DNA of 25,119 nucleotides, taken from Candidatus Komeilibacteria bacterium RIFCSPHIGHO2_01_FULL_52_14. GTDB taxonomy: Bacteria; Patescibacteriota; Patescibacteriia; UBA1558; 2-01-FULL-52-15. Below are positions 546 to 21,652 of this stretch, piece by piece. The stretch covers positions 1-25,119 of the forward strand of contig MHKK01000037.1 in the NCBI GenBank assembly GCA_001818365.1. Direction: 5' to 3'. Under the pieces are notes generated by a model. That model had not been told where the DNA came from. It saw only the letters and a program-made list of their open reading frames with translations, and did no database searches. A program made the position numbers and the translations under genes. Each line of letters starts with the position of its first letter. Positions within the stretch are counted from its first letter, which is position 1.

Positions 546-3404
546 ATGGCTTTCCTGACATCTCTATTTGGAGACGCGAACAAGCGTTTCCTACAAACGC
601 TTGCAACGATCGTCTCCGACGTTAACTCGAAAGAACAAGATTTAGCGAAGCTGTCCGATGAGGACCTTCGGTCGCGCACACTCGAATTAAAAAAGAAGCT
701 ATCGGATTCTCACGCTGCGAGCACCGATCAACTATCCGCTATCGAAAATTCGCTCCGGCTTGCAGCGAGCGAAGATGAAAAAAATCGTCTGCATCGTGCA
801 CGCATCGAACTCCTCAACGCGCCACTCAACGAATTGGCGCCTGACTCGTTTGCGATAGTGCGCGAAGCGGCCAAGCGCACCTTGAACCAGCGACACTTCG
901 ACGTCCAGCTCATGGGCGGGCTTGTTCTTCATTACGGCCAGGTCGCCGAAATGAAAACCGGCGAAGGTAAAACCCTTACGTCGACACTAGCCGTATACTT
1001 GAATGCACTCTCCGGCAAGGGCGTCCATGTCGTTACTGTCAACGACTATTTGGCCAGACGCGACGCCATCTGGATGGCGCAAATATTTCATTTGCTCGGT
1101 CTTTCGGTCGGCGTCATCATGCACGACGCGGCTTTTCTCTACGATCCGATGCATGTTTCCGCCGAGGAAGAGGAGCGGCGTGACGAGGGTGTCGCTCTCG
1201 AAATGAAGTTTTTGCGGCCCGTATCGCGCAAGGAAGCGTATCAGGCCGATATCACCTACGGGACCAACAACGAATTCGGTTTCGACTATCTCCGCGACAA
1301 CATGGTCTACGAGATGACTCAAAAAGTGCAGCGCGATCTGCACTATGCGATCGTCGACGAAGTCGACAGCATCCTGATCGACGAAGCACGAACTCCGCTT
1401 ATCATCTCGGCGTCTGATACCAGACCGACGCAGCGCTACTATCAATTCGCCGAACTCGTTAACCAGCTCGATGAAAAAACTGATTATGCGATTGACGAGA
1501 AGCTCCGTGCCGCGACGCTCACCGAATCGGGAATCACAAAATTGGAAAAATTGTTGAACGTCGAGAATATATACGTGCAGGGCGGCATCCAGACGGTGCA
1601 CCACATCGAGCAGGCATTAAAGGCCAAAACGCTTTTTCTTAAGGACCGCGACTACACTATCAAGGACGGCGAGATAGTCATCGTCGACGAATTTACCGGC
1701 AGAATGCTTCCGGGCAGGCGTTACTCCGAGGGACTGCACCAGGCCATCGAGGCCAAAGAAGGAGTTACAATTCAGCGCGAGAGCAAGACGATGGCGACGA
1801 TCACGTTCCAGAATTATTTTCGCCTATACACCAAGCTTTCCGGAATGACCGGAACCGCGGAAACCGAAGCCGAGGAGCTTGCTAAGATTTACAATCTGGA
1901 TGTAACGACAATACCCACGCATAGGCCGATGATTCGCCAGGATAACTCTGACCGGATCTACAAGAACGAAGCTGCAAAATTCGCCGCCGTCGTGCAGGAA
2001 ATCAAGACGCGCCACGAGAAGGGTCAGCCGATCCTTGTGGGAACCATATCGATCGACAAAAACGAGCGTTTATCGGCATTGCTTGAGCAGGAGGGGCTGC
2101 AATTTCATATTCTGAACGCAAAGCAGCACGAGCGAGAAGCCGAAATCATTGCACAAGCAGGAGCATACGGTGCCATAACCATTGCCACGAACATGGCAGG
2201 CCGCGGCGTCGACATCAAGCTCGGCGGCTCTCCCCACAACGAGGAGCAATTTAAACGGATCGTGGAGCTTGGCGGGCTGCACGTGCTCGGCACCGAGCGC
2301 CACGAATCACGGCGTATTGACAACCAGCTCCGTGGACGGTCAGGGCGCCAGGGCGAGCCGGGCTCGAGTCAGTTCCTTGTATCGCTCGAGGACGATCTGA
2401 TGAGAATTTTCGGAGCCGAACGCGTAAAAGGCCTCATGAAGAATTGGCCCGACGACATGCCCATCGAAAACAAATTCATCAGCAAATCCATCGAATCGGC
2501 GCAGAAGCGCGTTGAAGGTCATAACTTCGACATTCGAAAACATCTCGTCGAGTATGACGACGTCATAAATAAACAGCGCATGATCGTCTATGGTAAACGA
2601 GATCTGCTGCTGCAAACCGACCTCGACAACGAAGAGCTGCTTCCGGCGATGCTTCGCGACGAGATGCAGCAGGAGATTGAGTACGCACTTGATTCGTTTG
2701 CTACGGCCCCAGCAACTGCAGAATGGAGCACTAAGGAGCTCGTCGAGTTTCTACGCGCACTGTTAAATCCGACACCGCCTCAGCTGAAAGAGCTCGAGGA
2801 TCTTTGTACTTCCGCCGATGCACACGCCGCACGGGCGCAACTCTTTGAAAAAATTCAAGCGCTGTCCGATCTTCGATTCGGCACGGTTCGCAGTACCGTC
2901 AACAAGCAAATGGCGTCGCCAACCAAAAAATACCCGATCAATGAGATTATACGATCTTTCTACTTGCGCAGCATCGACATACTCTGGGTGGAGCATCTCG
3001 AAACGATCAATTATCTGAGGACCGGGATAGGTCTGCGCGGTTACGGTCAGAGGGACCCTCTGGTTGAGTATAAACGAGAATCGAAAGATTTATTCAATCG
3101 TTTACTTGCGGATATCCGCCGGCAGTTCGTTTTCGCCCTCATCAACATCGGCACGGAAGCTACCGGTCGCCCTGCCGCAACCGACGGACAAGAACGCCTT
3201 ACCGAACAGAAGGATGCGGTTAGCGTGTTCGGCGGTGCCGAGGAGCGCAAAACGGAAGCACCGACCTCAAAACCAAAAGACACTTCCGGAAAAAAAATCG
3301 GCCGAAACGATCCTTGCTATTGCGGAGCGATAAACCCCGATACCGGCCAGGTCTATAAATATAAAAAATGCGGCCTTATCAATGCTCCGTATCACAAGCA
3401 ATAG
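546..3404 (+). CDS. secA: preprotein translocase ATPase SecA (952 aa)
   Basis: Has the Walker A motif MKTGEGKT, the DEVDSILIDEARTPLIIS DEAD-like motor motif, TGTAETEAEE, NMAGRGVDIKLGG and the C-terminal Cys/His metal-binding tail RNDPCYCG...KKCG...YH. Confidence 0.95.
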   Translation: MAFLTSLFGDANKRFLQTLATIVSDVNSKEQDLAKLSDEDLRSRTLELKKKLSDSHAASTDQLSAIENSLRLAASEDEKNRLHRARIELLNAPLNELAPDSFAIVREAAKRTLNQRHFDVQLMGGLVLHYGQVAEMKTGEGKTLTSTLAVYLNALSGKGVHVVTVNDYLARRDAIWMAQIFHLLGLSVGVIMHDAAFLYDPMHVSAEEEERRDEGVALEMKFLRPVSRKEAYQADITYGTNNEFGFDYLRDNMVYEMTQKVQRDLHYAIVDEVDSILIDEARTPLIISASDTRPTQRYYQFAELVNQLDEKTDYAIDEKLRAATLTESGITKLEKLLNVENIYVQGGIQTVHHIEQALKAKTLFLKDRDYTIKDGEIVIVDEFTGRMLPGRRYSEGLHQAIEAKEGVTIQRESKTMATITFQNYFRLYTKLSGMTGTAETEAEELAKIYNLDVTTIPTHRPMIRQDNSDRIYKNEAAKFAAVVQEIKTRHEKGQPILVGTISIDKNERLSALLEQEGLQFHILNAKQHEREAEIIAQAGAYGAITIATNMAGRGVDIKLGGSPHNEEQFKRIVELGGLHVLGTERHESRRIDNQLRGRSGRQGEPGSSQFLVSLEDDLMRIFGAERVKGLMKNWPDDMPIENKFISKSIESAQKRVEGHNFDIRKHLVEYDDVINKQRMIVYGKRDLLLQTDLDNEELLPAMLRDEMQQEIEYALDSFATAPATAEWSTKELVEFLRALLNPTPPQLKELEDLCTSADAHAARAQLFEKIQALSDLRFGTVRSTVNKQMASPTKKYPINEIIRSFYLRSIDILWVEHLETINYLRTGIGLRGYGQRDPLVEYKRESKDLFNRLLADIRRQFVFALINIGTEATGRPAATDGQERLTEQKDAVSVFGGAEERKTEAPTSKPKDTSGKKIGRNDPCYCGAINPDTGQVYKYKKCGLINAPYHKQ

Positions 3405-3505: not shown

Positions 3506-5269
3506 TTGAAAGGGTATAAGGAATCTGCTAGTATTCGCTCCGTTATGAATAAATACCGAGTTGAGGCAAAAACACATCGTCTCGCGACACCGACACAGGT
3601 GCGCGTGAGCATTTTTTTAATTGTCATATTGACCATCTCCGCCGTTTTCGTGGCTGTTCCGCAAAGCATTTTGGCAAAAATCAACCTTTCCATTCCCTTT
3701 TTCTCCCGATTCTACACGCATCTCGGTCTTGATCTTCAGGGAGGCACGCACCTGGTCTACCAAGCCGATCTCGGTAATATTGCGCCTTCGGAGCGCGATT
3801 CGGCCCTTGAGGGCGCAAGAGACGTCATAGACCGCAGAGTAAACTCGCTCGGTGTTGCCGAACCGGTCGTACAAACTTCCCATCAGGCAGGCAATTCCCG
3901 CATTATTATCGAGTTGGCCGGTGTTCTGGACGTCAATCAGGCAATTAAAAAAATAGGGGAGACGCCGCTTTTGGAATTTATGGAAACCGGGACTGCGACA
4001 ACCACTAAACCGACAAGTGAGCAGATTTCGGCTGTTGAAGAGAAAAATAAAGCCCAGGAGCAGGCAGCCAACGATATCATCAAACGGCTGCAGAAAGGCG
4101 AGATTTTCGAGGAGCTGGCAAAGCAATATTCCGAAGACCCGGGGAGCAAGGACAATGGTGGCGATCTGGACTGGATCGGTCGCGGTATCTTTACTCCGCT
4201 CTTCGAGAAAGCCATATTTGACGAAATGAAACCCGGCGATCTTCGGCCGGCGCCCCTGCAGACCGAGTTCGGATACCACGTCATTAAAAAATTAGAGGAG
4301 CGTACCACCGATACCGGCGCAAAGGAAATTCACGCCGCACACATTCTGTTCCGTACAGAGTCACTCAACCAGGACACGGGCCCCATCTGGATCAACACGT
4401 CGCTGTCGGGCAAAAATTTAAAGCGTGCCGAGGTGACCTTCACGTCGCGCGTCGGTGCTCCGGAAGTATCGCTTACCTTTGACAGCGAGGGGGCCAAGCT
4501 CTTTGAGGACATCACGCGCCGCAACGTCAACAAGCCCGTGGGCATCTTCCTCGATGGCTCGGCCATTTCAACGCCAAACGTCAACACGGTCATTACCGGG
4601 GGACAGGCGGTCATCACCGGAAACTTTTCCCTCGAAGAAGCAAAAACCCTGGCTCAACGGTTGAATGCGGGCGCTCTGCCGGTACCGATCTCTCTTTTGA
4701 GCCAGCAAACCGTCGGTCCGTCTCTCGGACGGGATTCCCTTGATAAAAGCGTCTTTGCAGGAGCCATCGGCTTCCTCCTGGTCGCCTTGTTTATGATCTT
4801 CCTGTATCGCCTGCCCGGTATTCTTGCAGTTTTGGCCCTGTGCCTCTATGCACTCATAACGGTCAGCTTATTTCAGATTATCCCGGTCACTCTTACCCTT
4901 GCGGGGGTTGCCGGTTTCATACTTTCGATCGGCATGGCAGTCGACGCGAACGTGCTGATCTTCGAACGCGTAAAGGAGGAGATCCGCAAAGGGCAAAACT
5001 TTACGAATGCCGTTGAAACCGGCTTTACGCGTGCATGGTCCTCAATACGCGATTCAAACGTCTCAAGTCTCATCACCTGTATCATCCTGTACTGGTTCGG
5101 ATCATCCATTATCCGGGGATTTGCGGTTACTCTCGCCCTGGGTATTGCCGTCAGCATGTTCTCGGCCATTACCGTCACACGCACCTACCTGCGAATCGTG
5201 ATCCGCTCGCAGGCGTTGCAGAAAACCTGGCTATTCGGAGTCAAGGCATCACATCAAACACATGCATAA
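3506..5269 (+). CDS. secD: protein-export membrane protein SecD with an embedded parvulin (PpiC-type) peptidyl-prolyl isomerase domain at about residues 172-265
   Basis: SecD hallmarks: LGLDLQGGTHLVYQAD, RVNSLGVAEPVVQ, IIIELAG, GETPLLEF, and C-terminal TM bundle motifs VDANVLIFERVKEE and ILYWFG. The embedded segment DIIKRLQKGEIFEELAKQYSEDPGSKDNGGDLDWIGRGIFTPLFEKAIFDEMKPGDLRPAPLQTEFGYHVIK matches the PpiC/parvulin rotamase signature. Start is TTG at 3506, preceded by AGGAG; an alternative ATG lies at 3545. Confidence 0.85.
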   Translation: MKGYKESASIRSVMNKYRVEAKTHRLATPTQVRVSIFLIVILTISAVFVAVPQSILAKINLSIPFFSRFYTHLGLDLQGGTHLVYQADLGNIAPSERDSALEGARDVIDRRVNSLGVAEPVVQTSHQAGNSRIIIELAGVLDVNQAIKKIGETPLLEFMETGTATTTKPTSEQISAVEEKNKAQEQAANDIIKRLQKGEIFEELAKQYSEDPGSKDNGGDLDWIGRGIFTPLFEKAIFDEMKPGDLRPAPLQTEFGYHVIKKLEERTTDTGAKEIHAAHILFRTESLNQDTGPIWINTSLSGKNLKRAEVTFTSRVGAPEVSLTFDSEGAKLFEDITRRNVNKPVGIFLDGSAISTPNVNTVITGGQAVITGNFSLEEAKTLAQRLNAGALPVPISLLSQQTVGPSLGRDSLDKSVFAGAIGFLLVALFMIFLYRLPGILAVLALCLYALITVSLFQIIPVTLTLAGVAGFILSIGMAVDANVLIFERVKEEIRKGQNFTNAVETGFTRAWSSIRDSNVSSLITCIILYWFGSSIIRGFAVTLALGIAVSMFSAITVTRTYLRIVIRSQALQKTWLFGVKASHQTHA

Positions 5270-6185
5270 TTTTCCATTCGTAGGATTACGCCGTCTATGG
5301 TATACGGGCTCCGGGCTGCTCGTTGCAGCAAGCATCGTCCTTTTTGCGATCTTCGGATTGCGATACGGCCTCGATTTTACCGGCGGCAGTTTGCTCGAGG
5401 TCGGTTATGCATCACAACGTCCGACCGTTGAAGCGCTCACGCAACTTCTCAAAGAAACCGGTGCGGCCGACGAAAAAATTCAGCCAAGCGGTTCCCTGGA
5501 TTATATTATCCGTCTCCCCGAGATCTCCGAAGACAAACACCAGGATCTGCTCAAAAAACTTTCCGATCAGGCCGCTGCGCTTGCCGAGGGCAATACCCTG
5601 TCGGAAAAACGATTCGAGTCCTTTGGCCCGACACTCGGCAGCGAGCTCAAGCGAAACGCAGTCATCGCGATCATCCTGGTGCTCATCGCAATCATCGCAT
5701 ATCTCGCGTACGCCTTCAGGAAGGTCTCCCGTCCCGTCTCGTCATGGAAATTCGGTGTTGTCGCCGTCATAGCGCTGACGCACGATATATTCATACCGGT
5801 CGGTTTGTTCACCCTCCTGGGACTTCTCTACGGGACCGAGGTTGACAGTTTGTTCGTGACGGCTTTGCTTACGCTCTTGGGATTTTCCGTTCACGATACC
5901 ATCGTGACGCTGGATCGGATCCGCGAGAATCTTTTTAAGCATCAGGACCTGACATTCTCCGAGATCGTGAACGTGAGCATCAACGAGACGTTTACCAGAT
6001 CCATCAACACATCGCTATCGACGCTTTTCGCGCTTATCGCGATTTATTTTTTCGGCGGCGCCACGATCCGCAATTTCGTTCTCGTGCTCATCATCGGTAT
6101 CATCATCGGCACGTATTCATCCGTCTTTATCGCAGCCCCGCTCTTGGTCACCTGGCATTCCTTTTCGAGCAAGCGCAAAATATAA
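5262..6185 (+). CDS. secF: protein-export membrane protein SecF (307 aa)
   Basis: Has LDFTGGSLLEVGY, the TM pattern, HDTIVTLDRIREN and LSTLFALIAIYFFGG. Overlaps the secD stop by 8 nt, consistent with translational coupling. Confidence 0.85.
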   Translation: MHNFPFVGLRRLWYTGSGLLVAASIVLFAIFGLRYGLDFTGGSLLEVGYASQRPTVEALTQLLKETGAADEKIQPSGSLDYIIRLPEISEDKHQDLLKKLSDQAAALAEGNTLSEKRFESFGPTLGSELKRNAVIAIILVLIAIIAYLAYAFRKVSRPVSSWKFGVVAVIALTHDIFIPVGLFTLLGLLYGTEVDSLFVTALLTLLGFSVHDTIVTLDRIRENLFKHQDLTFSEIVNVSINETFTRSINTSLSTLFALIAIYFFGGATIRNFVLVLIIGIIIGTYSSVFIAAPLLVTWHSFSSKRKI

Positions 6186-6256: not shown

Positions 6257-6285
6257 TTGACGAATTTTGCCAATTATGCTATATT
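6257..6285 (+). promoter_or_regulatory. putative sigma-70 promoter: TTGACG, 17-nt spacer, TATATT
   Basis: -35 at 6257-6262 and -10 at 6280-6285. The predicted TSS near 6292 lies 8 nt before the ATG at 6300. Confidence 0.4.
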
Positions 6286-6299
6286 CGGCCATATCCACT

Positions 6300-7397
6300 A
6301 TGGCAACATCAATTCTCGACCAAGTACTGTCTTCGCAGAAGCAATCCGCTATTTCTCAGTTTGACCCTGAGCAAGTGGCTGCTAAGCTTTTTTCGATACT
6401 TTCAGAGCGCGAGCAGGACATTCTTGTGCGGCGCTATGGGCTTAAGGGAAAGGAAAAGATGACCCTTGAGGAAATCGGCAAGCAGTATTCGGTCACCCGG
6501 GAGCGCATCCGACAGGTTGAAAATGCTTCGATCAACAAAATACTGAGCGAATACCGCGATTCACTTCTGCGTGATCTTGAGGCGCTGATCCGCGACGTAC
6601 TTGAGGACCACGGCGAGCTTATGTCCGAGAATCGCCTGGTGCAAAATCTTCTCGACACCGACGCCGAGAGCGATCAATCGAAGGCGCTGGTACATTTCAT
6701 GCTGAACCAGCTTCTCGCGGAACGGCTGCAACTCGTCCGTGAATCCGATGCCGTCTATAAGACATGGTCGCTGCAAGCGGCACGATGGGATGAATTTCAT
6801 TCGATTATCGACCGGCTTGTCGAAATAATCAAAAAGCACAATGAGCCGCTCCGCCTCGAGCAGTTGCTCGACCGGGCCCGTGGAGCGGTATCCGTTCCCG
6901 AGGACGATTTCGAGCGTATTCTCGTAAACTATCTCGACGTCACGAAAAAAATTGAGGAGAACCGATTCAACGAGTGGGGTCTTTCGCATTGGAGCTTGAT
7001 CCGTCCTCGCCGCATGAACGATAAAATTTATCTGATACTGAAGCGTGAAACAAAGCCCTTGCACTTCGTTGAGATCGCAAAGCGAATCAACGATTCAAAT
7101 TTCGACAAGCGCGTTGCCTACCCTGCGACCATTCACAACGAGTTGATACTCGACGATAAGTATGTCCTGGTCGGGCGCGGCATCTATGCCCTCAAGGAGT
7201 GGGGTTATAAGCCCGGCGTCGTGCTGGACGTCATCAAGGACATCCTTCGTGAGAACGGCGCCATGTCCAAAGAGGAGATTATCACCGCGGTTTTGAAGAA
7301 CAGAATGGTAAAGAGGAGCACAGTGGTTCTCGCACTCATGAACAAGAAATTCTTTGCCAAGGATCAGGACGGCCGGTACGTGCTTGTGCAGTCATAG
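6300..7397 (+). CDS. predicted DNA-binding regulator with an N-terminal sigma-70 region-4 HTH and a C-terminal HARE-HTH (RNAP delta-subunit-like) domain. It is not a complete sigma factor.
   Basis: Region-4 signature: LSEREQDILVRRYGL..KEKMTLEEIGKQYSVTRERIRQVENASINKIL. The C-terminus PLHFVEIAKRIND...ATIHNELILDDKYVLVGRGIYALKEWG follows the HARE-HTH pattern. No sigma regions 2 or 3. The ORF track starts at TTG 6267; the ATG at 6300 (MATSILDQ...) is preferred because it lies downstream of the promoter. Confidence 0.7.
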   Translation: MATSILDQVLSSQKQSAISQFDPEQVAAKLFSILSEREQDILVRRYGLKGKEKMTLEEIGKQYSVTRERIRQVENASINKILSEYRDSLLRDLEALIRDVLEDHGELMSENRLVQNLLDTDAESDQSKALVHFMLNQLLAERLQLVRESDAVYKTWSLQAARWDEFHSIIDRLVEIIKKHNEPLRLEQLLDRARGAVSVPEDDFERILVNYLDVTKKIEENRFNEWGLSHWSLIRPRRMNDKIYLILKRETKPLHFVEIAKRINDSNFDKRVAYPATIHNELILDDKYVLVGRGIYALKEWGYKPGVVLDVIKDILRENGAMSKEEIITAVLKNRMVKRSTVVLALMNKKFFAKDQDGRYVLVQS

Positions 7398-7424: not shown

Positions 7425-8948
7425 ATGCTGCCAGACATTAATGCGTTTTTGATTCAACTTGCATCGAAAAGTCCACTCGAGGTCGGGTGGATTTTGTTTA
7501 TTAAAGGCGGGTGGATCATCCTTGCCGTCATGACCATCCGCGCCATGCTGTTGATACGGTTGTATCAACTGCAGGGCAAGTACCTTCGCAAATTTGAATA
7601 CGTACTGCTCGCGATCGACGTACCCAAGGCAAGTGAGCAAACTCCGAAAGCCATGGAACAGGTTTTTGCGACGATTACCGGGGCTCACCAGGAGATCAGC
7701 AGGCGCACGAAATACGGAACAGGAGAGGTCCAGCTCCAATTTTCTTTTGAGGTCGTCTCACTGGACGGGTATGTTCAATTCCTCGTTTACACGCCAAAAA
7801 TTTACCGTGACCTCGTCGAGGGAGCCATCTACTCGCAGTACCCCGACTGCGAGATTACGGAGGTAGAGGACTACACCAAGAATATCCCGTCGGTATGGCC
7901 AAACGATCAGTATAAACTCTGGGGGTCGGAAATTGTTCTGGCAAAAAAAGAAGCATACCCGCTTCGCACCTACCCTTCGTTCGAAGATCAGCTCTCGCAG
8001 GAGCTCAAGGACCCGCTTGCGTCGCTCATCGAAAATATGAGCCGTATCCATCAAAACGAGCAGGTCTGGCTGCAGATGATCCTCGTACCGACCGAGAACG
8101 TCGTGTGGGTCAAACGCGCCTTAAAGGAGGCCTATAAGATCGCCGGGAAAAAGACCAAGGAGGAACAAAAAACCGGATATCTGGACAGGATTCTGTCTCC
8201 GCTTTATAACTTCCCCAACTGGTTCTCGTGGCTAGCAACCGGAGGAGGCGAAACGAAACGGGACCAGCAATTCGATTTCCGCGTGCTCAATCTCACCCCG
8301 GGAGAGCGGGCGTCTGTCGAAGCCATAGAGAAAAAAGCATCAAAGCTCGGCTATATCGTTAAAATGCGTATCGTATATCTGTCGACGCCGGAACAATATC
8401 AGCCGGCGCGCGTCATTAATTCCGTTTTCGGTGCCATCAAGCAGTTCGGCGATCTGACGTCCAATTCACTGAAGCCCAACAAAAAGACCAAAACATCGGT
8501 CGTCTGGTTCAAGTTCAGATCAAAAGGCAAACAAATCCGACTCATGCGCAACTATAAGAACCGGTCATGGTTCCGCGGCTCCAAATGGTATATCCTTAAC
8601 GTAGAGGAGCTCGCCACGCTGTATCATTTCCCGTCGATAACCGTCACGTCTCCGTATCTCAAGCGTACGGAAACCAAAAAGGGCGAGGCACCGGTCCAGT
8701 TGCCGGCAAGCATTGTCGAGGAGAAAGCGGCCGAGATCGGCTCGCTCAAGACCGAGCTTGAAGGTCTGGATCTCGATAATGATTATTACGAGCAGAAGTA
8801 CGGCAAATATCGGGTGCCAAAGCCGCAAAACCTCACAGAGAAGCAGGCGACCGTCGTTGAGAAGCCGACTCTCGATACACGCTCGGATAAACCCGAGCAG
8901 GAAGCTGAATCAAAGTCCACAGCCCCAAGCAATTTACCTCTCGGATAA
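7425..8948 (+). CDS. single-pass membrane protein of unknown function (507 aa). It is homologous to the N-terminal half of the 829-aa protein at 22123-24612.
   Basis: Has an N-terminal TM helix (WILFIKGGWIILAVMTIRAMLLIRL). Alignable blocks with the 22123 ORF include FEYVLLAIDVPK vs HDILLITIPK and ILNVEELATLYHFPS vs LLNSEEMVSLFHLPE. Its TAA stop overlaps the ATG of the next gene (TAATG). Confidence 0.75.
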   Translation: MLPDINAFLIQLASKSPLEVGWILFIKGGWIILAVMTIRAMLLIRLYQLQGKYLRKFEYVLLAIDVPKASEQTPKAMEQVFATITGAHQEISRRTKYGTGEVQLQFSFEVVSLDGYVQFLVYTPKIYRDLVEGAIYSQYPDCEITEVEDYTKNIPSVWPNDQYKLWGSEIVLAKKEAYPLRTYPSFEDQLSQELKDPLASLIENMSRIHQNEQVWLQMILVPTENVVWVKRALKEAYKIAGKKTKEEQKTGYLDRILSPLYNFPNWFSWLATGGGETKRDQQFDFRVLNLTPGERASVEAIEKKASKLGYIVKMRIVYLSTPEQYQPARVINSVFGAIKQFGDLTSNSLKPNKKTKTSVVWFKFRSKGKQIRLMRNYKNRSWFRGSKWYILNVEELATLYHFPSITVTSPYLKRTETKKGEAPVQLPASIVEEKAAEIGSLKTELEGLDLDNDYYEQKYGKYRVPKPQNLTEKQATVVEKPTLDTRSDKPEQEAESKSTAPSNLPLG

Positions 8949-10687
8949 TGGATCAAAAAGCAAACAGCGCAATTACCGTTTTTGCCGCAACGAACTTCCG
9001 CAATAAGCAGCAGCGTTTCGGTATCAAACGCGAAGACCGGCGACGCCACATGTACCTTATCGGTAAAACCGGTATGGGTAAATCGCAGTTGCTGGAAAAC
9101 ATGGCGATTCAGGATATCAGAAACGGCAACGGCGTAGCGGTCGTGGATCCGCACGGCGACATGATCGAGCGGATTTTGCGATTCGTCCCGCGCGAGCGGA
9201 TCAACGATGTCGTCTATTTCAATCCCGCCGATCTCGAGTATCCGATTGCGTTCAACGTGCTCGAGAAAGTTTCTCCCGAGCAGCGTCACCTCGTCGCATC
9301 GGGGTTGATAGGCGTTTTTAAAAAGATCTGGGCCGATTCCTGGGGACCCCGTTTGGAGTACGTTCTGCATAATGCCATTTCTGCGCTTCTGGAGTACCCG
9401 AGCTCAACGCTCTTGGGCATCATGCGCATGCTCACCGACAAGAACTTTCGCAAGCGCGTCATCATGAAAGTAAACGACCCGGTCGTCAAGGCCTTTTGGG
9501 TTGACGAGTATTCCAAATACCCTGACCGGTTCCAGGCCGAAGCGATCGCGCCGATTCAAAACAAAGTCGGTCGCTTTTTGACATCGTCATTGATGCGCAA
9601 CATCGTCGGACAGGTAGCCTCAACGATCAACATCCGCGAAATAATGGATCGCGAAAAAATATTTTTGATCAACCTTTCCAAGGGACGCGTCGGCGAAGAC
9701 AATTCGTCATTGCTCGGCGCCCTTCTGATTACGAAGATGCAGCTCGCAGCCATGAGCCGCGTCGACGTGCCGGAAACGGAACGTAGAGATTTTTATCTTT
9801 ACGTCGACGAGTTCCAAAATTTCGCAACGGAAAGTTTTGCCGGCATCCTGTCCGAGGCGCGTAAATACCGTCTCAATCTGGTTCTTGCGCACCAATACAT
9901 TGCACAGCTTATTAACGATGCGAACAGTCAGGTCCGTGATGCCGTATTCGGCAACATCGGGACTCTGATTACGTTCCGCGTCGGCGCAGCCGACGCCGAG
10001 TTCATGGAGCCGGAATTCGAACCGCAGCTCACGATGAACGACCTCGTCAATCTCCCAAAGTACCATGTGTATTTGAAGCTCATGATTGACGGCGTCACCT
10101 CGAACGCCTTCTCCGCAACAACGCTGCCCCCGTACACCATCCCCGAGGATTCTGCGGAAGTTGTTGAAAAGATTATCAAATCCTCCCGTGAACGGTATGC
10201 GAAACCCCGTGAGGTCATCGAGGATAAGATTATCCGCTGGGCGGAAAACAAAGGCGATGGTGAAGGCAGCGCTGATGCTCGCGACGCTGGTCAAGCACGC
10301 GACACGAGGGATCACGAACCTCGGCGCACTGTACCGGCTGCAAGTCGACCGTCTCGACATGATGCGGCCGACACCGGCCCGGCAAAGCAGCTTTTTAGCG
10401 CTATTTGCTCGAATTGCGGCAAAGCGACCGAGACCAAATTCAAGCCGGATCCGAACAGACCTGTGTATTGCCAGGACTGCCTGCAAAAAATTAAGAGGGG
10501 AGAGTTGCCTTTAAGGCGCGAGATGCCCGAGCCACCCCGTGCAGTTTCACTGGCCGAAGCGATTGCCATGCACCAAAAACACGGACCACCTGTGCAAAAC
10601 CACGGCCAAATTGCTGAAAAAAAGCATTCCGAGCATATTTTACAGCCAAAACAAGTTGTATCGATCCCGCATAGCAGTAACACCTAG
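8948..10687 (+). CDS. FtsK/HerA-superfamily P-loop ATPase (HerA/DUF87- or VirB4/TraG-like) with a C-terminal low-complexity linker and a CxxC...CxxC zinc ribbon. It is homologous to the C-terminal half of the 829-aa protein.
   Basis: Walker A is YLIGKTGMGKSQ and a VVDPHGD motif follows, as in HerA/DUF87. Walker B is LYVDEFQNF. Arg/Gln sensor block: EARKYRLNLVLAHQYIAQL. The tail is CSNCGK...KFKPDPNRPVYCQDC. Confidence 0.8.
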   Translation: MDQKANSAITVFAATNFRNKQQRFGIKREDRRRHMYLIGKTGMGKSQLLENMAIQDIRNGNGVAVVDPHGDMIERILRFVPRERINDVVYFNPADLEYPIAFNVLEKVSPEQRHLVASGLIGVFKKIWADSWGPRLEYVLHNAISALLEYPSSTLLGIMRMLTDKNFRKRVIMKVNDPVVKAFWVDEYSKYPDRFQAEAIAPIQNKVGRFLTSSLMRNIVGQVASTINIREIMDREKIFLINLSKGRVGEDNSSLLGALLITKMQLAAMSRVDVPETERRDFYLYVDEFQNFATESFAGILSEARKYRLNLVLAHQYIAQLINDANSQVRDAVFGNIGTLITFRVGAADAEFMEPEFEPQLTMNDLVNLPKYHVYLKLMIDGVTSNAFSATTLPPYTIPEDSAEVVEKIIKSSRERYAKPREVIEDKIIRWAENKGDGEGSADARDAGQARDTRDHEPRRTVPAASRPSRHDAADTGPAKQLFSAICSNCGKATETKFKPDPNRPVYCQDCLQKIKRGELPLRREMPEPPRAVSLAEAIAMHQKHGPPVQNHGQIAEKKHSEHILQPKQVVSIPHSSNT

Positions 10688-10719
10688 AAAATGCTATACT
10701 TTCATACAGTAACATTGAT

Positions 10720-11361
10720 GTGGATAACTTCAATCATCAAAAATTAATTATGCACAAAGAAAAAAAAGGATTCACCCAGCACCACTTTTTAAGTGGTAGC
10801 CATGGGTCAAGAATAGTGTCGAGTAACAAAAGTGGTGCCAGAAAGCTGGGTTTACCCAGCACCACTTTTAGCACCAAAAGTGGTGCTGGGTTCACGCTTA
10901 TCGAGCTTATCATCGTTGTGGCAATCATCGGACTGCTTGCCGCAGCGCTCTATGTGGCCATCGATCCGGCTGCACGTCTCGGTAATGCACGTGATGCGCG
11001 TAGGTACGCTGACGTAACGGCTATACTGAACGCAATTTTACAATATACGTCAGATACCTCAACACTGCCGACGCAGCTTGATTGTGCAGTAGGCACTTAC
11101 TGCATGATTCAGAATGGTGGTAGTGCTTCCGACGAAACAACGGGATCGAACTGCACGGAGCTCGATAGCAACCCGCCAACAGCTATGGCGATCGGATTAT
11201 CGTTAGTTGATAAATACCTTGCGTCTATCCCAATAGACCCGAGCGCAGCTTCCACTGCAACGAGCAGCTCAGGTTATTACCTAAAGCGATCAACGAGCGG
11301 TCGAATTACAGTCGGGTCGTGCACGAAATACCAAACTGCCTCAATCGAGGTCCAGCGGTAA
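10720..11361 (+). CDS. type IV pilin / pseudopilin (class III signal peptide, GFTLIEL N-methylation motif), copy 1, with an unusually long N-terminal extension
   Basis: KSGAG|FTLIELIIVVAIIGLLAAALYVA is a canonical prepilin-peptidase site and hydrophobic alpha1 helix with Glu+5. Four Cys are present in the C-terminal globular part. The ORF-track start is GTG. The true start is uncertain because the roughly 57-aa leader is atypical. Confidence 0.8.
   Translation: MDNFNHQKLIMHKEKKGFTQHHFLSGSHGSRIVSSNKSGARKLGLPSTTFSTKSGAGFTLIELIIVVAIIGLLAAALYVAIDPAARLGNARDARRYADVTAILNAILQYTSDTSTLPTQLDCAVGTYCMIQNGGSASDETTGSNCTELDSNPPTAMAIGLSLVDKYLASIPIDPSAASTATSSSGYYLKRSTSGRITVGSCTKYQTASIEVQR
10772..10890 (+). 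promoter_or_regulatory. structured leader element of pilin copy 1, built from repeated and inverted GCACCACTTTT / AAAAGTGGTGC blocks and including a perfect 15-bp-stem palindrome
   Basis: CCCAGCACCACTTTT-AGCACC-AAAAGTGGTGCTGGG lies at about 10854-10890. Additional copies at about 10774-10797 (ACCACTTTTTAAGTGGT) and 10827-10838 (AAAAGTGGTGCC) allow mutually exclusive pairings. Confidence 0.5.
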
Positions 11362-11417
11362 CATGACCAGGACGCATCTCCCGTAAGAGACGCACAAGAG
11401 CGCCGTTAGTTTGAGCT

Positions 11418-12023
11418 ATGAAGACCGCGAATGGATTCACCCAGCACCACTTTTCAAGTGGTAGCCATGTGTCAAGGCTAGTGTCGAGTAACAAAAGTGG
11501 TGCCAGAAAGCTGGGTTTACCCAGCACAACTTTTAGCACTAAAAGTGGTGCTGGGTTTACGCTTATCGAACTCATCATCGTTGTGGCAATCATCGGATTG
11601 CTTGCGGCAGCACTCTATGTTGCCCTTGATCCTGCAGGTCGCATTGGGAGGTCCCGCGATGCACGGCGATATACCGATGTGTCTGCCATATTGAATGCCA
11701 TATTGGAATATACGGCCGATACGACTACGTTGCCAACGAACGTCGCTGCTCTCAACACCGATGTCTACTACGTTGTTCAAAACGGCAGCAACGGGCAGGT
11801 CACTGCCGAAACAAGCATTCCGTGCAACGAAACGGGTATCCGTAACGGAGTCATCCTGGGTTCGCAACTCGTCAGTAAATATATTTCTACGATACCGCAG
11901 GATCCGAGGATCACCACAGCAACCAGCTCATCGCAATACTATATTCGTAAAACGACCAATGATAGAATCACCATTGGAGCATGTGAACACTATCAGTCGG
12001 GTTCGGTGGAAGTGCAGCGATAG
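11418..12023 (+). CDS. type IV pilin / pseudopilin, copy 2 (tandem paralogue)
   Basis: Has the same leader and GFTLIEL N-terminus as copy 1. The first roughly 190 nt are about 90% identical at nucleotide level; the globular C-terminal domain is divergent. ATG start. Confidence 0.8.
   Translation: MKTANGFTQHHFSSGSHVSRLVSSNKSGARKLGLPSTTFSTKSGAGFTLIELIIVVAIIGLLAAALYVALDPAGRIGRSRDARRYTDVSAILNAILEYTADTTTLPTNVAALNTDVYYVVQNGSNGQVTAETSIPCNETGIRNGVILGSQLVSKYISTIPQDPRITTATSSSQYYIRKTTNDRITIGACEHYQSGSVEVQR
11437..11555 (+). promoter_or_regulatory. structured leader element of pilin copy 2, duplicate of the copy-1 element
   Basis: Same block arrangement. The central palindrome CCCAGCACAACTTTT-AGCACT-AAAAGTGGTGCTGGG at 11520-11555 has one stem mismatch. 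Confidence 0.5.
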
Positions 12024-12176: not shown

Positions 12177-12203
12177 TTAGCACTCTCAACCTTTGACTGC
12201 TAA
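12177..12203 (+). promoter_or_regulatory. CIRCE operator (HrcA binding site)
   Basis: TTAGCACTC-tcaaccttt-GACTGCTAA matches the CIRCE consensus TTAGCACTC-N9-GAGTGCTAA with one mismatch in the right arm. It sits directly upstream of hrcA. Confidence 0.85.
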
Positions 12204-12207
12204 TCGC

Positions 12208-12879
12208 ATGAACGTACGCCAGGAAGAATTGCTTTTTAAGCTCACTGAGGCATACCTCACGACCGCAGATCCCGTCAGTTCGGGTCTTTTGGCTCATAAG
12301 GCGGGGTTTTCGATTAGTTCGGCAACCATACGAAACGAACTTGTACAGCTCGAGGAAGAGGGCTTTCTGTACCAACCTCATACATCGGCCGGACGGATTC
12401 CGACCCTGAAGGGGATCGAGCGCTACATCGCGCAGGTGCGGGAAGCGGCCCTTCTCTCCGAAGGAGAGCAGGTACGGCTAGAGGCCATATTCAAACATGA
12501 CGGGCTCCGGGGGCTTGCTAAGGAGGCCGCGGCATACTGCAAGGCGGCAGCTGTCGTAGCGAGAAACGGAAATGATTTCTACTACACCGGCTTTTCCAAT
12601 TTGTTCTCCGCGCCCGAATGCTCGAATGCGCAGCTCGTCAGGGCAGTCAGCCGGTCCATAGACGCGCTGGAGGATGCCCTTCCGCAATTCATCGAGAGCG
12701 GGCAATCGTCGTCCCCGAAGCTCTACCTTGGAAAACATAATCCGCTCGGTGCCGACTGTGCGGTCATGTTCATCGGCGACGGGAAACATGCAAAGACGCT
12801 CGTCGGGATTATCAGCATGGTACGAACGAATTATAAAAAAAACATGGCCGTCCTGAAATCGATATCGCAGTATCTATAA
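12208..12879 (+). CDS. hrcA: heat-inducible transcription repressor HrcA, short form of about 223 aa
   Basis: The N-terminal wHTH (RQEELLFKLTEAYL...PVSSGLLA...SSATIRNELVQLEEEGFL) and the C-terminal LVGIISMVRTNYKKNMAVLKSISQYL are HrcA-like. The ORF-track TTG at 12193 lies inside CIRCE, so the ATG at 12208 is preferred. Confidence 0.75.
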   Translation: MNVRQEELLFKLTEAYLTTADPVSSGLLAHKAGFSISSATIRNELVQLEEEGFLYQPHTSAGRIPTLKGIERYIAQVREAALLSEGEQVRLEAIFKHDGLRGLAKEAAAYCKAAAVVARNGNDFYYTGFSNLFSAPECSNAQLVRAVSRSIDALEDALPQFIESGQSSSPKLYLGKHNPLGADCAVMFIGDGKHAKTLVGIISMVRTNYKKNMAVLKSISQYL

Positions 12880-12881
12880 CT

Positions 12882-13436
12882 ATGGAACCTTTACAGCACG
12901 ATACGGCTCCGGCAGCCGACAAAAAATCTTCGCACCAAGCATCACCGCCCGCGAAAGGCACAGCCGATGTCGCTTCGCTTACTTCCCAGCGTGACGAGTA
13001 TCTGAACGGCTGGAAACGCGCTCTCGCCGATTATGAAAACTTCAAGCGCGAATCAATCGAGCGTCTCGATACGCTTACGCGAACGACTCTGAAAATGTTC
13101 CTGCTCGATCTCCTGCCGTTCATTGATGCCTACTACACAGCGCTTTCCCACGTTCCCGAAAGCGAACGCTCACACCAATGGTACCTGGGCTTGCTCCAGG
13201 CGCAAAAGCTCTGGGAACAGCTTGCTCAGCGACATGCCATACGGCGCATGAACAGCATCGGTGTTCAATTCGATCCTGCCCGACACCACGCACTGGCAAC
13301 AGCACAGGAAACCGGCAAAAAAGAGAACGAGATCACCGGGGTCGCGCAGGAGGGCTACCTGATACGTGATGAGGTTCTGCGTCCGGCCCTCGTAACCGTC
13401 AATAAAATTGCTCCGGAAGCCGCTCCTCAAAAATAA
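12882..13436 (+). CDS. grpE: nucleotide exchange factor GrpE
   Basis: LNGWKRALADYENFKRE and the C-terminal GVAQEGYLIRDEVLRPALVTV are GrpE signatures. It sits between hrcA and dnaK. Confidence 0.85.
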   Translation: MEPLQHDTAPAADKKSSHQASPPAKGTADVASLTSQRDEYLNGWKRALADYENFKRESIERLDTLTRTTLKMFLLDLLPFIDAYYTALSHVPESERSHQWYLGLLQAQKLWEQLAQRHAIRRMNSIGVQFDPARHHALATAQETGKKENEITGVAQEGYLIRDEVLRPALVTVNKIAPEAAPQK

Positions 13437-13467
13437 CTAAACAACAACTATCATTAATACCAATTCT

Positions 13468-13884
13468 ATGTCACTCATCAAATGGACCCCGCTGTACGAA
13501 CCCTTCCTCGATATGGAGAAAGCGTTCAATGAAATGGGCATGCTGCAGGCGGCATCGTTACCCCCGATCGACCTCTATGAGAAAGGTGATCAGCTTATCG
13601 TTGATGTTGCCCTTGCCGGCATTGACCCGTCCCAGGTAAAGATCAACATCGAGGACAATGTCCTGAATATCGAAGGGTCGGTGGAAAAGAAATCGGAGGT
13701 TGATGAAACCAACTATTACCGGAAAGAGGTACGCAGCGGATCCTTTCACCGCGTTATAGCCCTCCCGACAGCCGTAAACGGAAGCGAAGCAAAGGCCGAG
13801 TACGATAAAGGGATTCTTCGTATCAGGATGCCAAAAAAGGAAGAAGTGAAGCCGAAGAAGATAGATATCACGATAAAGAAATAA
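13468..13884 (+). CDS. small heat-shock protein, Hsp20 / alpha-crystallin family
   Basis: The alpha-crystallin domain pattern IDLYEKGDQLIVDVALAGIDPSQVKINIEDNVLNIEG...YYRKEVRSGSFHRVIALPTAVNGSEAKAEYDKGILRIRMPK. Confidence 0.85.
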   Translation: MSLIKWTPLYEPFLDMEKAFNEMGMLQAASLPPIDLYEKGDQLIVDVALAGIDPSQVKINIEDNVLNIEGSVEKKSEVDETNYYRKEVRSGSFHRVIALPTAVNGSEAKAEYDKGILRIRMPKKEEVKPKKIDITIKK

Positions 13885-13902
13885 CTTACCCACCCTCGCA
13901 CT

Positions 13903-14238
13903 ATGCAACCACAAGCGCATCAACTGAGCCTGAAACTGCTTGAAAAGTGTCCTTCGTGTCAGTCCTTCGTTCCGGCGGCCAACGTTCACATTCTGGCCGA
14001 AAGCGATACCAAACTGCTGGCGCATCTTGCCTGCCAGCACTGTACCGCGAAATACCTGACCTATATCGTCAATCAGGAGCACGGCATCGTCGGCAACGCG
14101 ATTGTAACCGACCTGAGCTACGCCGAAGTACTCGCTTTTGATTCACTGAAGCCGCTTAATGAGGATGACGTGCTCACCCTCCACCGGTCAATCCATTCGA
14201 ACGACTTTATTGCGTATATTCGAAACAAAACTCATTAA
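13903..14238 (+). CDS. small hypothetical protein with a CxxC-N24-CxxC zinc-ribbon-like motif, embedded in the heat-shock operon
   Basis: CPSCQSF...LACQHCTAK. The ORF fills the gap between hsp20 and dnaK in the same orientation. No recognised family. Confidence 0.5.
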   Translation: MQPQAHQLSLKLLEKCPSCQSFVPAANVHILAESDTKLLAHLACQHCTAKYLTYIVNQEHGIVGNAIVTDLSYAEVLAFDSLKPLNEDDVLTLHRSIHSNDFIAYIRNKTH

Positions 14239-14248
14239 TTACTCATAA

Positions 14249-16137
<1,889 letters not shown>

Positions 16138-16138
<1 letters not shown>

Positions 16139-16428
16139 TGGCTGAAGAAAAACGTGAGATACAAATTCGCATCCCTGACGACGTATTGAAAGGCAGGTAT
16201 GCGAACATAGTACGGATCGATACGACACGCGAGGAATTCATAATGGACTTCGGAGTCATAAACCCCCAGCAGGGAACCGGTATCGTTACCGAGCGGATCA
16301 TTATGAATCCCGCGCACGTCAAACGCATGATCGAGGTATTGAATCGCGTCATGCAGGGATACGAAAAAAGCCACGGAACGGTCGCTCCCGCGGAGCAGCA
16401 AAAGGAGATCGGCTTCACCACCGCCTAA
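16138..16428 (+). CDS. small conserved hypothetical protein (96 aa) between dnaK and dnaJ; tentatively a DUF3467-like family member
   Basis: The ORF is start/stop coupled to dnaK (TAATG). Family assignment is from memory of similar small proteins (EIQIRIPDD...YANIVRIDTTREEFIMDFGVI) and is not verified. Confidence 0.5.
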
Positions 16429-16434
16429 AGCGAT

Positions 16435-17541
16435 ATGGCGAAGGACTACTATGCACTCTTGGGCGTTAACCGCAACGCAACCGATGCGGAGATTAAGGCC
16501 GCGTTCCGGCGCCTTGCGCACGAGCACCACCCTGATAAGCAGCAAGGCAACGAGGCGAAGTTCAAGGAAATAAACGAAGCGTACCAGGTACTCGGTAACA
16601 AGGAGAAACGAAGCCAGTACGATCAGTTCGGTACGGCGTTCGAAGCCGGCGGAGCAAACCCGTTTGGTGGTTTTGCCTGGCAGGATATGCGCGGCGGAAA
16701 TCCGTTCGGCAACGGATCGTTTCAGGGCACGCAATTCGATTTCGGCGATCTCGGTGAGATGTTCGGCGATGTGTTCGGTTTCGGCTCAGCCAGAACGGCA
16801 AGCGCCGATCGCAGTACTCGTGGTGCGGACGCTGAACTGACCATACCGCTCTCATTTGATGAAGCATATTTCGGAGCAGAAAAATCTCTCGAGCTCATGC
16901 TCGACGCGTCCTGCGAGCATTGTCTGGGATCGGGAGACGAGCCGGGTGCTCGTATCAGCAAATGCACGACCTGCGACGGCAAGGGTGTCATTACTCAAAT
17001 GCGTACGACATTCTTGGGAGCAGTCAGAACGCAATCCCGATGCGGCACGTGTAACGGAACGGGGAAACGCTCGTCAAAAAAATGCACCGTCTGCCACGGC
17101 AGGACAACCGTTCAAAAGCACCAGACGCTCAACGTTAAGATCCCCGCAGGCATCGATCCGACCCGCACGATCCGGCTCGGCGGCAGAGGACACGCTGGCA
17201 GCCGTAGCGGTTTGCACGGCGATATTTATATTCGCGTCACCGTTTCCCCTCACCGGTTGTTTGAACGCGAGGGCGATGATATAAAAAGTACCGAGGAGAT
17301 TCCGCTGTCGCTTTTGGCACTTGGCGGCACTGCCGAAGTACAAACTCCTACCGGACCCGCCAAACTCAAAGTTCCCGTTAATACGAAAAGCGGCACTCGC
17401 TTCATATTGCGAGGCAAGGGCTTTGAGCATCTATCGGGACGAGGCAGAGGAGACCAATATGTTACCGTGCATGCGCGAGTACCTGAAAGGATGACACCCC
17501 AGCGAAAGAAGATGCTTCTTGAATTTGAAAAAGGCGAATAA
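16435..17541 (+). CDS. dnaJ: molecular chaperone DnaJ
   Basis: J-domain with HPD (YYALLGV...HEHHPDK), a G/F-rich linker, and four CxxCxGxG zinc motifs (CEHCLGSG, CTTCDGKG, CGTCNGTG, CTVCHGRT). Confidence 0.95.
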   Translation: MAKDYYALLGVNRNATDAEIKAAFRRLAHEHHPDKQQGNEAKFKEINEAYQVLGNKEKRSQYDQFGTAFEAGGANPFGGFAWQDMRGGNPFGNGSFQGTQFDFGDLGEMFGDVFGFGSARTASADRSTRGADAELTIPLSFDEAYFGAEKSLELMLDASCEHCLGSGDEPGARISKCTTCDGKGVITQMRTTFLGAVRTQSRCGTCNGTGKRSSKKCTVCHGRTTVQKHQTLNVKIPAGIDPTRTIRLGGRGHAGSRSGLHGDIYIRVTVSPHRLFEREGDDIKSTEEIPLSLLALGGTAEVQTPTGPAKLKVPVNTKSGTRFILRGKGFEHLSGRGRGDQYVTVHARVPERMTPQRKKMLLEFEKGE

Positions 17542-20673: not shown

Positions 20674-21612
20674 CTACAGCCAGTTCCTTTTCTTGAAATA
20701 CGCGAGTATACCGGTTACCAGTAAACCCATACCGACGACAAGTATCCAAAAACCGTACGGATGAAGAACGAGCGGCATGCCGAGCGCATTCATGCCGAAG
20801 ATCGTTGCAACCAGCGTTGCCGGCAAGATGCTCACGGAGATCGCCGTCAAAACGCGCATCGCATCGTTCAGTTTGAATGAGATCAACGAATCATTCGCTT
20901 CCTGAAACGCATTGATCGTTTCTTTCAATATTTCCAAAATCTCCCAGATGTCTTTTGTCCGGTCAATGATGTTCCCAAAATACAAGGCAAGCCCGGGATG
21001 AAGAACAAAAACGCCCGGTATCGAAACGCCCACCAATTTCTTCAAAGTGCTCTTGTGCGCGTTAACGATTCGCCTGAAGTTAACGATGTTGCGCTTTATC
21101 AACAGGATCTTTCCGACCATCTGTTTTTCATGCCCAGAAAAAATATTATGCTCGATATTCCCGATATCCTCGGACATGTGATCGAGCATCGGGAAGACGC
21201 TTTCCTGCAATCTTCGCAGCGTCTCATACAAAAGATGCGCCGGCGTCTGATCGAGATATCGCTCGCGCATGATGTTACTCTTCAAGCAGTCGTCAAAAAA
21301 CTGATCCAGCACCGGATGCTTTCCGTCGCTCACCGTGATCAAATAGTCCGGACCGATAAAGAAATCGATTTCGGCCGGCCGGATCTCTTTTTCATGTCGG
21401 ACATAGTACGGAAAGAGGAGTATCAGAAAAACATACGCATCATAGGATTCGATCTTCGGCCGCTGCGCGATATTGATGCAGTCCTGCAGATCAAGCGGAT
21501 GGAACTGAAAATTATCCCGCAAAAATTGAATATCATCCTCCGTAGGTGAGACGATGTGTATCCAGTGAACGCGGTTCGATCGTATGAGTCGTACCCGATT
21601 GACCATTAGCAT
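20674..21612 (-). CDS. corA: magnesium/cobalt transporter CorA
   Basis: Has the GMN motif (IFGMNALGMP) followed by two C-terminal TM helices and KKRNWL. The N-terminal region is acidic. The start at + 21610-21612 (MLMVNR...) has AGGAGGTG 9 nt upstream on the minus strand. The ORF-track start at 21654 lacks an RBS. Confidence 0.85.
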   Translation of the reverse strand: MLMVNRVRLIRSNRVHWIHIVSPTEDDIQFLRDNFQFHPLDLQDCINIAQRPKIESYDAYVFLILLFPYYVRHEKEIRPAEIDFFIGPDYLITVSDGKHPVLDQFFDDCLKSNIMRERYLDQTPAHLLYETLRRLQESVFPMLDHMSEDIGNIEHNIFSGHEKQMVGKILLIKRNIVNFRRIVNAHKSTLKKLVGVSIPGVFVLHPGLALYFGNIIDRTKDIWEILEILKETINAFQEANDSLISFKLNDAMRVLTAISVSILPATLVATIFGMNALGMPLVLHPYGFWILVVGMGLLVTGILAYFKKRNWL

Positions 21613-21637
21613 GAGTATACCACCTCCTGCGAAAAAC

Positions 21638-21646
21638 TGGTATAAT
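21638..21646 (+). promoter_or_regulatory. extended -10 promoter element TGgTATAAT, 7 nt upstream of the ATG at 21653. It predicts a leaderless mRNA. The same hexamer reads ATTATA on the opposite strand and may serve the divergent corA promoter.
   Basis: The sequence is CTGGTATAATTGCGCCATGG, and the ATG sits at the expected TSS distance. Confidence 0.4.
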
Positions 21647-21652
21647 TGCGCC

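Follow-up and report, generated by a model that had tools for sequence, protein, structure and literature searches.

The question raised by this locus is whether a protein folding catalyst has been built into SecD, a subunit of the Sec protein translocase. The DNA studied comprises positions 1-25,119 of the forward strand of contig MHKK01000037.1 from Candidatus Komeilibacteria bacterium RIFCSPHIGHO2_01_FULL_52_14, and this whole stretch of 25,119 nucleotides is called the window below. A first-pass annotation had described a segment resembling parvulin-type peptidyl-prolyl isomerases (PPIases) inside the SecD encoded there. We found that the segment is a parvulin by homology and by fold, that it is strongly conserved, and that a block of Patescibacteria possesses SecD proteins with one or two such domains. 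We consider it likely that the protein is a genuine SecD with a circularly permuted parvulin in the connection between the base and the head of its P1 domain, serving as a built-in foldase or holdase similar to PrsA or PpiD.

The secD gene (3545-5269) is an uninterrupted open reading frame (ORF), located like all features described here on the + strand and encoding 574 amino acids from an ATG at 3545. A public gene call (P0001) uses this start, and its 574-residue product is 100% identical to the window SecD. An in-frame TTG at 3506 would lengthen the protein by 13 residues to 587. The start is ambiguous: the TTG has a GGAG 3 nucleotides upstream, and no obvious Shine-Dalgarno sequence is present near the ATG. 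Residue numbers refer to the 574-residue protein, except for the ranges obtained in the Pfam scan, which refer to the 587-residue form. In that scan the order of domains was Sec_GG (72-88), SecD_1st (102-160), Rotamase_3 (177-264), Rotamase (176-261), SecDF_P1_head (296-393) and SecD_SecF_C (396-562). Both parvulin families scored far above their curated thresholds, Rotamase_3 (PF13616) with E=5.7e-24 and 85.3 bits against a gathering cutoff of 22.5, and Rotamase (PF00639) with E=3.6e-20 and 73.2 bits against a cutoff of 21.7, which bears out the claim of a parvulin segment within SecD. The first-pass annotation had itself named a contrary outcome, an ordinary P1 head with no rotamase match; what was found instead is that the ordinary P1 subdomains flank the segment. 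A divergent ordinary P1 head is ruled out by the Pfam scan and by the alignment to the Thermus protein described below.

The remainder of the chain is that of a SecD. The NCBIfam scan assigned it to the curated equivalog TIGR01129 (secD) with 399.4 bits (cutoff 244.4), and a Foldseek search with the full AlphaFold2 (AF2) model matched the SecDF structures 5YHF, 5XAN and 3AQP with E values of about 1e-26. Like the canonical proteins of Thermus thermophilus (3AQP/5YHF) and Deinococcus radiodurans (5XAN), it consists of a first transmembrane segment (TM1), the P1 base, the P1 head and TM2-6, so that a large extracytoplasmic P1 is followed by five C-terminal TMs; the AF2 helices supporting this topology span residues 16-37 and 396-554. 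TM1 (3590-3655, residues 16-37) is an AF2 helix with the hydrophobic sequence VSIFLIVILTISAVFVA. The N-terminal part of the P1 base (3710-3988, residues 56-148) ends in the strand TPLLEF and was recognized by SecD_1st (E=2e-16) together with the Sec_GG motif. The P1 head (4388-4720, residues 282-392; SecDF_P1_head, E=2.5e-31) and TM2-TM6 (4721-5224; SecD_SecF_C, PF02355, E=2e-18) complete the protein. The transmembrane Asp of the canonical proteins is present as well: D467 (4943-4945), located in GMAVDANV, pairs with D340 in GAAVD340GNV of T. thermophilus (alignment GMAVDANVLIFER / GAAVDGNVLSFER). It is invariant in a set of 96 homologues, whose identity to the window SecD is 53-69%. Thermus D340 is reportedly the transmembrane Asp of the proton path. 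Judged by these features, the backbone looks like that of a working SecD. The secF gene (5262-6185; TIGR00966, 284.5 bits, cutoff 160) starts within the end of secD, and the overlap of 8 nucleotides (5262-5269) suggests translational coupling. For comparison, 80 related SecD loci from GTDB species genomes were scored with hidden Markov models built for this analysis, and a SecF-like ORF was present downstream of secD in 79 of them. The window protein is thus a genuine SecD, and its partner SecF is a protein of its own.

Alignment with T. thermophilus SecDF (3AQP) located the insertion site. Residues 58 to about 150 align with Thermus residues 33-127, and residues 287-564 with 160-438. Between these blocks about 136 residues (about 151-286), made up of a linker, the permuted parvulin and a further linker, stand in place of a Thermus connector of about 32 residues (128-159). 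No solved SecDF is known to have a catalytic domain in P1. The parvulin is inserted after the P1-base strand TPLLEF and ahead of the strand that opens the P1 head. Compared with a normal SecD, about 113 residues (4016-4354) are extra between the two subdomains. The parvulin had first been assigned to 4019-4300, and a parvulin is indeed found there; its actual span is about 4016-4354, since the β1 strand at 4322-4354 follows β4. Likewise, its assignment to P1 was correct but not its placement between P1 and the TM bundle, as the P1 head comes after the insert. This site is hypervariable in length. Across the 80 loci, minimal Patescibacteria SecDs have a connector of 12-43 residues between base and head; a single parvulin brings it to about 130-150 residues and a pair of them to about 240. 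In three of the proteins (L032, residues 135-270; L036, 165-225; L067, 160-230) this site has no parvulin but a linker, 47-116 residues long, of acidic low-complexity sequence. They occur inside the parvulin-bearing clade, and their linkers may be remnants left after loss of the parvulin.

In its fold the insert is a parvulin, with four helices packed against an antiparallel sheet of four strands. AF2 modelled the full chain with a predicted local distance difference test (pLDDT) score of 89.9 and the insert alone with a pLDDT of 91 and a predicted template modelling score of 0.81. The order of elements in the model was helix 158-183, helix 188-195, strand 207-211, helix 218-227, strand 243-254 and strand 260-270. 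The chain enters the domain through a stalk, the long helix α1 (4016-4093, residues 158-183), which is modelled with pLDDT >90 and poorly conserved (identity 0.30). The core from α2 to β4 (4094-4306, residues 184-254) contains S196 and D198 (4130-4138), T240 (4262-4264) and the FGYH motif with H245 (4277-4279). It is followed by a loop (4307-4321, residues 255-259) that joins the former C- and N-termini, by the strand KEIHAAHILFR (4322-4354, residues 260-270) with H266 at 4340-4342, and by a flexible linker to the P1 head (4355-4387, residues 271-281; pLDDT about 68, identity 0.25).

Among the 96 homologues, S196, D198, G206, G243, H245 and the triplet H266-I267-L268 are invariant (96/96), only T or S occurs at position 240 (96/96), and L208, F216 and F220 are conserved in most. 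We take D198, H266, H245 and T240 to be the counterparts of the C113(Asp)-H59-H157-T152 hydrogen-bond network known from the Pin1 and Par14 literature, and L208, F216 and F220 presumably correspond to the proline pocket of Pin1 (L122, M130, F134). By residue conservation, both the D-H-H-T network and the proline pocket of a parvulin are thus retained. Mean identity in the parvulin core is 0.58, compared with 0.66 in the P1 head and the TM regions; the P1 base has a mean pairwise identity of 0.70.

The order of elements in the insert differs from that of known parvulins, a point not contained in the first-pass annotation. The native order is β1-α1-α2-α3-β2-α4-β3-β4. The insert instead reads α1-α2-(α3)-β2-α4-β3-β4, a short loop, and then β1. 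Pfam matches start only at profile position 10 (PF00639) or 30 (PF13616), and neither the Pfam scan nor the AF2 model revealed a β1 strand upstream of the first helix of the insert. The sequence KEIHAAHILFR, which comes after FGYHVIKK (β4) and the five-residue loop, bears the canonical parvulin β1 motif. The parvulin in SecD therefore appears to be circularly permuted, lacking the usual N-terminal β1 and having a β1-like strand after β4. In a phmmer search of PDB sequences the best match of the insert was SurA (E 5e-21), and the trailing strand aligned to TEVHARHILLK, the β1 of the second parvulin of SurA. Because of this alignment the insert reads as an excerpt of a tandem parvulin, running from α1 of one unit to β1 of the next.

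Moving the strand to the front in silico improved both Pfam matches: PF13616 went from 90.4 bits (coverage 29-115) to 96.4 bits (12-115), and PF00639 from 76.9 bits (10-94) to 81.0 bits (1-94). The re-permuted insert gave one colinear BLASTP match to Pin1 (sequence checked against 1PIN), covering residues 55-163, the whole PPIase domain, with E=9e-10. In this alignment the second His of the strand (H266) falls on H59 of Pin1. With the permuted order, the His of the Pin1-H59 type would therefore be supplied by the strand after β4. AF2 predicted the strand 260-270 with a pLDDT of 97-98 even when the insert was modelled without its SecD context. The length of the β4-β1 loop varies among homologues, by up to about 45 extra residues (P0030, P0038, P0043), as expected of a loop that joins former termini. 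The trailing strand is absent from every relative among the 80 loci that has no parvulin core. An assignment of the HIL strand to the P1 head or the hinge was rejected, since it is absent from insert-free SecDs and is a confident strand in the insert-only model. The top structural match, 8HM3/8HM4, aligned over 106-120 residues and was considered as a permuted relative; by sequence it has its own N-terminal β1, and it was discarded.

Parvulins were found in 36 of the 80 loci, 14 of which are intact ORFs with one parvulin and 22 with two (L014-L017, L019-L029, L031, L033-L035, L047, L064 and L065); this survey of SecD architectures had been proposed with the first-pass annotation. Two further loci are broken or partial. 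No parvulin was detected in the remaining loci of the 80, which include all Chloroflexi and cyanobacterial outgroups. The two-parvulin proteins (for instance L014, L020 and L025) share with the window SecD the insertion site, the stalk, the linker and a β1-like strand before the P1 head. They differ in having two cores, the inner, native one being intact, whereas the single permuted domain of the window protein is itself intact. Their order is core1, strand', core2, strand'' and P1 head. The His is kept in strand' and in β4 of core2 in all of them (22/22 each) but in β4 of core1 in merely 2/22 and in strand'' in 4/22. Pairing of each core with the strand that follows it is disfavoured by this pattern. 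In the simplest reading, strand' and core2 would form an intact parvulin of native order that is nested in the β4-β1 loop of a degenerated, permuted outer parvulin. The last strand would then pair back with the first core, and the His pattern thereby gives independent support for the permuted topology of the window protein.

Some of these proteins are also fused to SecF. L047, L064 and L065 are single-chain SecDF fusions of 1046-1149 residues from Peregrini-/Gracilibacteria, in which a very degenerate outer parvulin-like segment with an extra insertion accompanies an intact inner parvulin, and L028 (Magasanikbacteria) is a two-parvulin SecD fused to SecF. In a neighbour-joining tree of the SecD backbone only, which is rough and without support values, one- and two-parvulin forms are interleaved in one large clade, and the Moranbacteria-type and Peregrini-/Gracilibacteria-type forms are in separate clades. 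Eight parvulin-SecD loci (L003, L011, L015, L021, L029, L031, L034, L035) are labelled as taxa outside the candidate phyla radiation (CPR), namely Lysobacteraceae, Bdellovibrionales, Binatia and 'uncultured Gammaproteobacteria'; all eight lie inside the Patescibacteria clade of the tree. The Lysobacteraceae label of L003 is clearly wrong, as shown by its GC content of 30%. L015, labelled Binatia, has 64% GC.

The fusion of SecD with Rotamase domains was present in 120 of the 120 best matches among 5.8 billion clustered proteins. Those of the best 120 matches that are named for an organism are all from Patescibacteria, and where the source gives a protein name it is always SecD. The fusion is thus widespread in its lineage and not a one-off. 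The window SecD belongs to the same 90% cluster as OGY89296.1 (UniProt A0A1G2BRU0, Candidatus Komeilibacteria), which is named solely "Protein translocase subunit SecD". Metabolic or proteostasis reconstructions of CPR genomes that are based on gene names will miss the proposed foldase, because the annotation of these proteins reads simply SecD. In a search with the insert, covering 1.84 billion representatives, 16 of the 150 top representatives at 50% identity were SecD fusions and the others ordinary multi-parvulin proteins; as the latter outscore single fusions, this search gives no clean count of the family. Full-text literature searches, with most subscription journals outside their scope, returned no description of a SecD-parvulin fusion, which is absence of evidence only, and searches of the same scope returned none of a permuted parvulin. 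The earlier statement that the fusion is not among the standard SecD architectures described thus holds for the literature searched, but the architecture is common in part of the Patescibacteria, as the 120 best homologues show.

Parvulin foldases at the Sec translocon are known from other bacteria, where they are separate proteins. In Escherichia coli, PpiD-YfgM acts at the Sec translocon (PMC9643414) and SurA acts with SecDF and the holotranslocon (PMC9987972), both unfused. As is proposed here for the SecD insert, these parvulin chaperones touch SecYEG or SecDF and receive emerging chains; they and PrsA act on such chains directly beyond the channel exit (PMC9643414; PMC9987972). Their association, unlike the fusion, is non-covalent and transient. 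The parvulin of PpiD is moreover inactive, and SurA has tandem parvulins in native order; the SecD insert aligns to the junction between β4 of one SurA unit and β1 of the next. PrsA of Bacillus and Listeria (4WO7, 1ZK6, 5HTF) exists as a separate protein, a dimer attached by a lipid anchor, which has an N/C chaperone domain (NC domain) and native strand order, whereas the window protein has no NC domain, is anchored via SecD itself and has a permuted strand order. Pfam and NCBIfam scans of SecD detected no chaperone domain flanking the parvulin as in PrsA, SurA or PpiD (NC or SurA_N-like), and the NCBIfam matches to PrsA and SurA covered only the parvulin segment with scores far under the cutoffs. 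The parvulin lies inside the SecD chain and thus has neither an anchor of its own nor a soluble periplasmic form as in these chaperones. The SecD-parvulin is therefore probably comparable to the PrsA/SurA/PpiD chaperones in function without being a member of that group. The covalent coupling of a foldase to the translocon exit that the first-pass annotation envisaged, in analogy to PrsA acting in trans, would be a reasonable interpretation.

A stable coupling has been described in Mycoplasma pneumoniae, where PrsA-like Mpn444/Mdp proteins were crosslinked to SecDF and PrsA-like lipoproteins with an active parvulin form a dome above the translocon (10.1101/2024.09.05.611430; 10.1101/2025.04.25.650208). 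This dome (Mpn444/Mdp444, Mpn436, Mpn489), a folding machine with an active parvulin, resembles the fusion in its stable coupling to SecDF in a bacterium with a small genome and no outer membrane. It consists of separate large, cage-forming lipoproteins and is in its architecture unrelated to an insert in the SecD chain; neither of the two papers mentions the fusion. The SecD-parvulin is a covalent version of this already known functional partnership between SecD and a parvulin.

The mechanism that we propose builds on these precedents. The variable helix α1 and the 11-residue flexible linker tether the parvulin at the junction of P1 base and head, on the outer face of the membrane and beside the mobile, substrate-binding P1 head. 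The P1 head of SecDF would capture unfolded chains leaving SecYEG and could hand them directly to this parvulin, which would isomerise their prolyl bonds or act as their chaperone. In these small-genome bacteria without an outer membrane the fused parvulin may thus replace a separately anchored PrsA-like foldase.

Several observations weigh against this proposal and bring in other explanations of the insert. PPIase activity is deduced solely from conserved residues, the parvulins of PpiD and SurA P1 keep their fold without measurable activity, and the two His of parvulins reportedly have a mainly structural role. Re-permutation raises the scores only modestly, by 4-6 bits. The replacement of a separate PrsA-like foldase is a tentative idea: the search for a stand-alone parvulin covered the 25 kb of the window and ±3 kb around secD in the 80 loci, and none was found. 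The inserted domain might be catalytically silent and merely enlarge the P1 head by a substrate-binding or holdase surface, as in PpiD or SurA P1; SecD would then gain chaperone capacity without isomerase capacity. We regard this as unlikely, though worth serious consideration, because the D-H-H-T network and the proline pocket are conserved across the 96 single-insert sequences, the insert is closest in sequence to the active domains of SurA (P2) and PrsA, and the tandem forms always retain one fully intact site (22/22).

A purely mechanical or regulatory function at the P1 hinge is considerably less probable still. The insert would in that case be a bulky spacer tuning or gating the proton-driven swing of the P1 head, or a docking site for another envelope component, in keeping with its position exactly at the length-hypervariable connection and with the poor conservation of stalk helix and linker. 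A spacer, however, has no need of the intact active site conserved in 96/96 homologues, the relatives with low-complexity linkers show that length can be obtained far more cheaply, and the identity of the core (0.58) nears that of the functional SecD domains. That the fusion is an artefact, produced by mis-assembly or by a frameshift that fused secD with an originally separate parvulin gene, has next to no probability; nothing speaks for it beyond the general risk of metagenome assemblies. The reading frame is unbroken with SecD domains on both sides, AF2 gives a single coherent chain, an independent public record has the identical gene call, and hundreds of homologues from NCBI, JGI, ENA and Logan have the same architecture. 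This recurrence in independent assemblies refutes the artefact. A built-in foldase or holdase in a genuine SecD is thus the reading that we prefer.

A bolder version of this reading is more tentative, and we would rather doubt than endorse it at present: that the window protein represents the first natural circularly permuted parvulin and the first folding catalyst built into the proton-driven P1 of SecDF, with capture, release and isomerisation mechanically coupled and the two-parvulin SecDs as a nested elaboration. If true, the fusion would be a natural Rosetta-stone link, indicating that SecDF and foldases of the PrsA/PpiD type act at the same step, and a minimal system to ask whether the folding of chains as they leave the translocon drives export. 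The hand-over of chains from Sec to folding factors is a subject of ongoing study, in which the known cases are PpiD-YfgM, SurA, PrsA and the Mycoplasma dome. The occurrence of the fusion in many Patescibacteria is independent evolutionary evidence placing a parvulin foldase at the P1 head of SecDF, and the protein offers a compact, genetically defined object for testing the coupling of SecDF and foldase. The permuted order and the nested relatives clearly illustrate how a well-studied enzyme fold can undergo domain insertion and circular permutation in nature.

The secA gene (546-3404) is located directly upstream of secD and is a 952-residue ORF that was assigned by reading its translation. 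When the window SecA protein was used as query, a SecA-like ORF was found upstream of secD in 16 of the 80 related loci. The tail of SecA (about 3300-3404, 'DPCYCGAINPDTGQVYKYKKCGLINAPYH') resembles the zinc-finger motif that SecA usually has at its C-terminus, except that the Cys pairs are much further apart than in the classical CxCx8C[HC]. A heat-shock cluster (12193-17541) encodes an HrcA-like protein, GrpE, Hsp20, a 111-residue protein of unknown function, DnaK and DnaJ, the HrcA-like assignment being a weak match to the C-terminal part only. Cytoplasmic chaperones are thus encoded near the secA-secD-secF block.

The window further contains two coupling-protein ATPases similar to VirD4/TrwB/TraG, in the regions 7425-12023 and 21584-24612. 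The first (8948-10687) carries a treble-clef zinc finger (PF23477) at its C-terminus; a 507-residue protein without a Pfam match is encoded upstream of it and two pilin-like proteins with N-terminal methylation motifs downstream. The second (22123-24612) is preceded by a 180-residue protein of unknown function. Finally, in a 376-residue protein (6267-7397), Sigma70 region 4 (E=4e-13) occurs together with a weakly matching HARE-HTH, an unusual pairing for a sigma-like factor.

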